A stretch of DNA of 59,285 nucleotides, filler included, from Dugesia japonica (taxonomy: Eukaryota): NCBI GenBank assembly GCA_001938525.1. It is 5 parts of 5 records of this genome, joined end to end, with 100 filler letters (N's around TTAATTAATTAA, not from the genome) between each part and the next. Parts side by side here need not be neighbours in the genome. Positions count along the whole stretch, not along the records: positions 13,807 to 28,786 come from MQRL01640136.1; 4 more parts are not named here. One strand, 5' to 3'. Below the pieces are notes generated by a model. That model saw only the letters and a list, made by a program, of their open reading frames with translations, searched no databases and was not told where the DNA came from. The translations under genes were made by a program, and so were the position numbers. The stretch's first letter is position 1. Every line of letters starts with the position of its first letter. Positions 25,981-26,906 of the stretch are shown piece after piece.

Positions 25981-26906
25981 AAGGATATAGCCAGATCTGG
26001 ATTTTATTTCGCCGGTACTCCGGAACGTCCAGATTAATTGAAATGCATATACTACCAAGGCAATCTGTGCAAATAAGGTAGAAACGAGAAACCCAATAGA
26101 GCTCACAAGAAATAAAAATAGAGCTTCCTACCTGTCCTTTCTTGCTAAACCTAGATGTAAATAATAAAACTCAGCTAATCAAAGGTAGAACCCCAGAAAC
26201 TGAGAAAACAACACTGGAACCGAAAATATTATATTGCAGAATCATAAAAAATCTAGCAGAAGTAGCATTATCAGATGATCTTGAATGGAATGTCGAAGCC
26301 AAAGAGGAAACCTTCCAAGAAATTCCAGGCTTGAAAGAGAAACCAACGGACGGATTATACCTCATTCAACAAACCAACGATAAAGTTATTAAATGCACTA
26401 CATGCAAACAAAAAACCCTGTTATTAAAAGGAGTAGAGAAATTACCAAAGAAGATATTCCATCAACCAGAATGTTCAAGATTAAAACGAATCAATTAAGA
26501 AAAATTGCTAGCAACAACTTGTAGAATCGAATGGAATATGTCCCTTAACAGAATAGAAATAGCAGTTGAATTACAGACCAACAGGTTGACTAATATTTTA
26601 AAGTTACAGCAGGTAAATATCGATCAACTAATAAAATGAACGGTCACAGAGAAAGGGACTGAATTAATCACACCACACGAATTATACCAACAGTCGCTCA
26701 GAAAGGAAGGTCAAAAAGTAGAAGTTGAACAAGAATGGGCCTTATTAGATAACGATTATGTCATTTGATTGGCGGAAACTATCGAAAGTATTTTCCTTCC
26801 ATGCGGGCATTTTAAAACATGCTATAATTGTGCGATAAAATTAAACGAATGCCCTATGTGCCGGAAGATAATTGAACGTAGGGTATTGGGGATAAAATTT
26901 CAATAA
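25981..26906 (+). pseudogene. Inhibitor of apoptosis (IAP)-like gene: BIR, divergent BIR and C-terminal RING
   Basis: DIARSGFYFAGTPERPD*LKCIYYQGNLCK*GRNEKPNRAHKK, a frameshift, then PTCPFL. A second unit reads GLYL...DKVIKCTTC...HQPEC. The C-terminus is SIFLPCGHFKTCYNCAIKLNECPMCRKII (IAP-type RING). Confidence 0.88.

Follow-up and report, generated by a model that had tools for sequence, protein, structure and literature searches.

We found that a 59,285-nucleotide stretch of Dugesia japonica DNA (the window) carries a pseudogenised accessory inhibitor of apoptosis (IAP) gene, most probably belonging to a large Burro-like Ty3/gypsy element (a probability of roughly 85%). The gene is a genuine IAP-type gene, comprised of a BIR, a degenerate second BIR, a UBA-like domain and a RING. 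IAP cargo in giant gypsy elements is already known, and the window copy is a further, dead instance of it in a Burro-like element. The features of the element and its IAP are as follows.

14234-17478, + strand: about 1,080 codons upstream of RT, in three overlapping frames, with no recognised domain.
17479-19167, + strand: Ty3/gypsy RT and RNase H (RVT_1, E 2.3e-33; RT_RNaseH_2, E 3.1e-17).
19284-20370, + strand: integrase with H2C2, core and SH3-like tail (Integrase_H2C2, E 3.6e-17; rve, E 1.5e-12).
20371-23900, + strand: post-integrase extension, Cys-rich segments followed by a predicted membrane protein, crossing the false gap at 23073-23122.
24014-24649, + strand: accessory ORF upstream of the IAP, Glu/Gln/Leu-rich, coiled-coil-like by eye, with one stop.
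24898-25166, + strand: 5' part of the IAP, an N-terminal extension with BIR1 beginning at ~25105; stops at 24958 and 24967.
25167-25981, no strand assigned: secondary insertion in BIR1 with TG..CA ends, an imperfect short terminal inverted repeat and an AGGA 4-bp target-site duplication.
25982-26144, + strand: remainder of BIR1 (Pfam BIR; P0002 residues 160-201); stops at 26035 and 26074.
26298-26474, + strand: degenerate second BIR-like zinc unit, C-x2-C-x18-H-x3-C.
26520-26699, + strand: linker, which in the intact relatives is a UBA-like helical domain; it has one stop, at 26637, with another at 26496 just upstream.
26757-26906, + strand: C-terminal IAP-type RING (zf-C3HC4_3); stop at 26766; the gene ends at 26906.
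27006-27680, + strand: accessory ORF downstream of the IAP, 224 residues, open, coiled-coil-like by eye.

The window joins five scaffolds at four N44-TTAATTAATTAA-N44 blocks (13707-13806, 28787-28886, 39125-39224 and 49848-49947). These are artificial joins of unrelated scaffolds, thus neighbourhood across them carries no meaning. The IAP-bearing scaffold spans 13807-28786 (14,980 nt), contains two internal N50 gaps (23073-23122 and 25462-25511), and is nearly all one decayed Ty3/gypsy element on the + strand. The first of the two gaps is false. It is flanked on both sides by the same 44 nucleotides and the reading frame continues across it, indicating that the pol contig overlaps the contig holding the 5' half of the IAP (23123-25461).

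The other four scaffolds contain features of their own. A single 799-codon stop-free frame at 3220-5619 (- strand) encodes ankyrin repeats and an ion-transport domain (TRP-like); no homologue of this ORF (3223-5619) was found at E 1e-10 or better among 8,000 candidate proteins. Two diverged repeats lie ~700 nt apart at 12282-13085. Pieces of another gypsy family, in a more decayed state and with ~30% identity to the IAP-linked pol, are located at 39533-41712 (- strand), 57270-59086 (- strand) and 49257-49337. A MITE-like element at 52118-53072 has inverted repeats of 132 nt that are 97% complementary and separated by 691 nt, and a 34-nt tandem array (59115-59283) lies at the window end. Rfam and ARAGORN returned 0 matches over the window.

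The order RT-RNase H-integrase, with gypsy-type domains, defines the element as Ty3/gypsy, and its RT-RNase H frame has a single stop in 563 codons. Upstream of RT, Pfam, tblastn and custom profiles gave no protease, dUTPase-like, env or gag match within 14234-17478, a PDB search with 14920-17028 gave no match, and custom protease and dUTPase-like profiles found nothing in the six frames of the scaffold. A gypsy pol that lacks a recognisable protease before RT is odd. Downstream of the integrase, the predicted membrane protein has hydrophobic stretches at 22221, 22647 and 23720, a stalk rich in Thr and, on the cytoplasmic side, a PPxY at 23864, which we take to be late-domain-like. The extension weakly matches the post-integrase tails of P0208, P0212, P0217 and P0221 (E 0.017), and this membrane segment may be a non-canonical envelope. 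Six giant polyproteins (P0208, P0212, P0217, P0220, P0221 and P0224) end in a signal-peptide-like and transmembrane segment after their integrase.

The accessory ORFs on either side of the IAP (24014-24649 and 27006-27680) have no significant Pfam match. The downstream ORF has element-like codon usage and is followed by a Pro-rich read-through region extending to ~28170. Within it, the stretch at 27770-27810 (+ strand) resembles a PAM2 poly(A)-binding-protein motif; it has no Pfam match. The scaffold is cut at both ends, and no LTR or long repeat was found between 13807 and 28786, nor any purine run of at least 12 in 27681-28786. Linkage to pol, composition and codon usage, and not an LTR-bounded position, therefore place the IAP in the element.

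The gene had been proposed from the sequence-only reading as a BIR-BIR-RING protein. All of the BIR and RING motifs noted in that reading were found on the + strand, and both domains were confirmed by Pfam. PF00653 matched 25960-26115, read with X at stops, at E 1.6e-5, its 25.7 bits exceeding the cut-off of 22.9, and zf-C3HC4_3 matched 26769-26903 at E 4.8e-12. The RING family profile also matches the RING structures of cIAP1, cIAP2 and XIAP. An IAP is defined by at least one BIR, of pattern CX2C...HX6-10C (PMC3972657). The window piece exceeds the Pfam BIR cut-off, as does the intact relative P0002 at 71.9 bits, and the BIR is decayed in the window copy. The C-terminal C3HC4 RING is likewise present, with its first two ligand positions lost in this copy.

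The intact relative P0002 (483 residues) was used to define the extent of the gene. It matched three pieces of the window by tblastn at 134, 61.6 and 36.2 bits, compared to a best chance score of 24.3 bits in 30 block-shuffled windows. Residues 99-157 of P0002 align with 24985-25161 at 52.5% identity (E 1.4e-12), 160-201 with 25987-26112, and 197-478 with 26106-26903. The IAP thus begins ~1.1 kb upstream of position 25981, where the sequence-only reading had placed its start. That position is instead the right end of the insertion at 25167-25981, and the 5' part of the gene lies at 24898-25166, where phmmer detects P0002 at E 2.3e-15 and P0004 at E 2e-4. The putative ATG at 24898 is probably the start. 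Apart from the secondary insertion inside BIR1 the gene is intronless, as had been claimed.

We compared the 3' IAP piece to 1.84 billion representative proteins. There were 395 proteins at E 0.001 or better and 5 at 1e-10 or better; among the 150 matches listed, P0001-P0004 and P0018 have alignments beyond the RING with E 5.6e-10 or lower, the next being at 0.006. A word-indexed search retained one of its 323 candidates, P0001. The five relatives share only 23-49% identity with one another, which argues for an old, small family, yet all lineage members keep the short-spaced second BIR. Pfam annotates one BIR and a RING in each of the intact proteins P0001, P0002 and P0004.

The second zinc unit is a degenerate BIR, as determined by profile and structure comparison of the relatives. 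The divergent CxxC..H..C unit described from the sequence is therefore present and BIR-derived, although it is not a canonical BIR and alone it matches nothing in Pfam. All four ligands of its C-x2-C-x18-H-x3-C pattern are invariant in 6 of 6 aligned rows. A profile of the unit from the five relatives aligned to 40 canonical BIRs with an hhalign probability of 93.9% (E 1.5e-7). P0002 residues 252-330 superposed on Atlas BIR clusters with a TM of 0.62-0.68, such clusters making up 8 of the 10 rows, and an Atlas feature search led to BIR clusters at 0.89, which we treat as a lead only. The unit probably still folds around zinc, with a role in structure or binding and not as an IBM groove.

The linker of P0002 (residues 345-415) superposes on IAP models, several of them UBA_BIRC2-3, with a TM of 0.66-0.80 (7 of 10 rows). 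An Atlas feature search with this linker returned no usable match, and the window linker weakly matches the family linker profile (E 0.014). AlphaFold prediction of P0002 from a 7-row alignment gave a mean pLDDT of 46.5 and a pTM of 0.26, with BIR1 alone well modelled. Foldseek retrieved BIR structures only with this model, which was set aside for the second unit. BIR1 of P0002 superposes on IBM-binding BIR2/BIR3 structures, and the DIAP1 BIR1 structures give no stronger a match than those of vertebrate BIRs. By eye, only P0002 shows a clear acidic IBM-groove pattern; it is partly present in P0018 and eroded in P0001, P0004 and the window copy, hence caspase binding is not assured across the family.

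The window copy is a pseudogene, so the present function implied for it does not hold. It contains seven stops (24958, 24967, 26035, 26074, 26496, 26637 and 26766) and a frameshift placed within 26113-26126. Alignment to P0002 shows that one of the BIR1 zinc-ligand positions is gone, as are the first two of the RING. With the insertion added, these breaks leave the copy unable to produce a working IAP. The density of stops is higher in the IAP (7 in 390 codons) than in the pol frames (8 in 1,702 codons; Fisher p 0.012, or p = 0.08 once the two N-terminal IAP stops are dropped), suggesting that the IAP was released from selection earlier.

The dead gene was later struck by another mobile insertion inside BIR1. 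The insertion is 815 nt plus, contains the N50 gap at 25462-25511 and includes a tandem array of 34-38-nt units at 25708-25860. Its GC content is 24% with an AT skew of 0.04, against 35% and +0.27 for both IAP halves. The likelihood of the 4-mer duplication matching by chance is ~0.008. No second copy of the insertion lies within the window. We consider it most likely to be a solo LTR or a collapsed LTR element. An intron was considered for this interval and rejected on the terminal repeats, the target duplication and the poor splice context; judged from the GT and AG dinucleotides at its ends and nothing beyond sequence, an intron would keep some residual probability.

The claim that the IAP is borne by a retroelement holds up. 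The gene lies on the coding strand of pol, to which it is joined physically and whose codon usage it follows. It spans the gap at 25462-25511, and the contig carrying its 5' half shares an overlap of 44 identical bases with the pol contig; together these eliminate mis-scaffolding as an explanation of its position. Both IAP halves match pol in GC, AT skew and strand, and are unlike the other scaffolds: the coding parts of the element have 34-41% GC and an AT skew of +0.19 to +0.37 (pol, 37-38% and +0.19 to +0.28), compared with 25-28% and -0.12 to +0.02 elsewhere. The codon log-likelihood ratio of an element model over a host model, the latter built from the single ankyrin/ion-transport ORF, is +50.8 across the 390 IAP codons, and an unrelated gypsy ORF (40081-40794) scores -1.7 under the same comparison.

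These data bear on other origins for the gene. It is very unlikely that a host IAP gene, or a processed pseudogene of one, came to lie beside or inserted into one copy of the element, with the AT-rich interruption possibly an intron. Such an origin would agree with the denser stops in the IAP than in pol, with an interruption that at 24% GC resembles host non-coding DNA and has GT and AG at its ends, and with intronless IAP retrocopies being common in animals (PMC13159474). However, TG..CA ends, inverted termini, an exact 4-bp duplication, a non-consensus donor and no pyrimidine tract are poorly matched to an intron, codon usage and strand skew follow pol, and the flanking ORFs share the strand and composition. 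PMC13159474 reports that the RefSeq flatworms it sampled have almost no RING-bearing IAPs, an argument that applies only to a flatworm host, the main text of that paper naming no planarian. It is also very unlikely that the IAP, together with the ORFs around it, derives from an integrated DNA virus or some other mobile element downstream of the gypsy. Codon usage and skew are uniform from pol through the last ORF, Pfam found no viral hallmark genes in the three + strand frames, and the UBA-like linker of the relatives points to a cellular-type IAP; this is set against the IAPs carried by insect DNA viruses (PMC3972657), the AT-rich spacers with poly(A) hexamers between the ORFs, and the lack of detected homologues for the ORFs that flank the IAP.

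A further alternative accepts the gene as element cargo and changes its role, to ubiquitin or innate-immune signalling or to the degradation of restriction factors rather than the blocking of caspases. Type I BIRs and cIAP-type proteins work in signalling (PMC3972657), and in this family the second BIR is degenerate and the IBM groove eroded in several relatives while the RING and UBA-like parts are kept. We nevertheless regard this role as unlikely, since P0002, which is the closest relative, retains a strong canonical BIR that superposes on IBM-binding structures, and the Burro1 B-IAP is reported to counter caspase-mediated apoptosis (PMC13465017).

We propose, from IAP biochemistry and the Burro1 report, how the cargo may have acted as an anti-apoptotic protein in intact copies of the element. 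The IAP would have been expressed from a separate downstream ORF. BIR1 would have bound processed caspases or IAP antagonists, as type II BIRs bind the IBM of both (PMC3972657), and the RING, aided by the UBA-like domain, could have ubiquitinated these targets, the IAP RING being an E3 ligase and the UBA a binder of ubiquitin chains (PMC3972657). The apoptotic threshold would thereby be raised in the stem or germ cells that support replication of the element, to the benefit of the element itself and possibly of its host. The role in stem-cell survival suggested by the sequence-only reading matches the protection of stem cells reported for the Burro1 B-IAP, a BIR and RING protein, by Lee et al. 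(Dev Cell 2026, as described in PMC13465017), although it does not apply to the dead window copy. The tie to integration-induced DNA damage drawn in the same reading gains no support from the present analysis.

The window copy has no effect today, and its interest lies in comparison. Taken with the relatives, which were compared as proteins, it suggests that giant gypsy elements carry anti-apoptotic cargo as a trait of the whole clade and not as a peculiarity of Burro1. It also gives the cargo a fuller architecture than "BIR plus RING", adding the degenerate second BIR and the UBA-like linker. Here the cargo has decayed no more slowly than pol, a point relevant to whether the reported host-transposon mutualism is widespread or restricted to a single family. 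More tentatively, and less likely than not, the element-borne IAP lineage may be old and shared by several giant gypsy families of different pol/env layouts, possibly beyond dugesiid planarians; the present element, in which RT lacks a recognisable upstream protease and the integrase is followed by a membrane protein, would be one of them. If this were so, and the hosts lacked RING-bearing IAPs of their own, retroelements would be the sole source of such a brake on apoptosis.

To place the element among gypsy groups, RT-RNase H was searched against proteins of 987-2,815 residues, giving 3,400 matches of which the best 120 were examined. The top BLAST matches for both RT-RNase H and integrase were P0208, P0212, P0217, P0220, P0221, P0223 and P0224, all giant polyproteins. 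These seven have 47-52% identity in RT-RNase H and 45-51% in integrase, where the next best is 40% among the matches listed. The integrase tree, from 22 hand-chosen rows of 92 matches, placed the window in a group of 7 rows (support 96/92) with six of these seven polyproteins, among them P0220 and P0217, whose cargo is of Burro type. In the RT-RNase H tree (45 of 114 matches, quick method) the window is unplaced on a long branch. In P0220, P0223 and P0224 the protease is preceded by a Monjiviricetes-type fusion protein; P0220 is found on a 32,242-nt contig and P0217 (2,387 residues) on one of 27,725 nt. P0217 is a gypsy polyprotein with aspartic-protease domains and has ankyrin repeats after its integrase.

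IAP cargo has been documented for giant gypsy elements of planarians, so the novelty implied for the present gene does not stand: the presence of a BIR in GYPSM1, an element with 97% identity to Burro1, was pointed out by Jurka (2007), as described in PMC6431247. The same source, which also describes Grohme 2018, records related motifs in Burro-2, -3 and -4, and its authors proposed meddling with host apoptosis and ubiquitination. The passages on Burro in PMC8532177 and PMC11410931 give it as context only. A term search of the main text of PMC13524379 gave no mention of Burro or BIR, the searched text of PMC10187017 yielded nothing, and no IAP-carrying gypsy outside planarians was found in a literature search that covered few subscription journals.

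We compared the element to Burro1/GYPSM1 of Schmidtea mediterranea, a giant gypsy whose accessory cargo includes an IAP with BIR and RING. A BIR-RING accessory gene is present here also, and B-IAP, compared by description only, is described as BIR and RING just as Pfam annotates P0001, P0002 and P0004. The integrase, moreover, groups with polyproteins having ankyrins or the Burro1-type layout of env before protease. In Burro1 a single polyprotein carries a mononegavirus-like fusion env, a protease and a dUTPase-like region immediately before RT, whereas the 3.2 kb upstream of RT here matches none of these, so the element differs from Burro1. It further differs in having a membrane protein after the integrase and an IAP copy that is a pseudogene. 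Burro1 is longer than 30 kb with LTRs, is present in thousands of copies, and carries MATH, BCL2-like, ankyrin and CCHC gag domains; none of these domains was found in the 15-kb scaffold, which is too short for a whole element. On its sequence we therefore call the element Burro-like, and not Burro1 as described; the label is our own, and no protein in the group bears the Burro name.

Baculovirus IAPs and DIAP1 have two BIRs and a RING, and the sequence-only reading had likened the gene to them. Like these proteins, the element IAP combines a RING with two BIR-derived units, and it is encoded on a mobile genome. The comparison is not supported in detail: only one BIR is canonical, the second unit ends in H-x3-C without a Pfam match, and the intact relatives have a UBA-like linker as in BIR-UBA-RING IAPs. 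Cellular IAPs of this kind (the cIAP1/2, XIAP and DIAP2 type) share the BIR, UBA-like linker and terminal RING in the same order. They have three BIRs, while the element IAP has one canonical and one degenerate BIR, no CARD and no introns, and is carried by a retroelement. Thus, the degenerate second BIR and the UBA-like linker of the relatives bring the layout nearer to cellular IAPs than to the viral type with two canonical BIRs.
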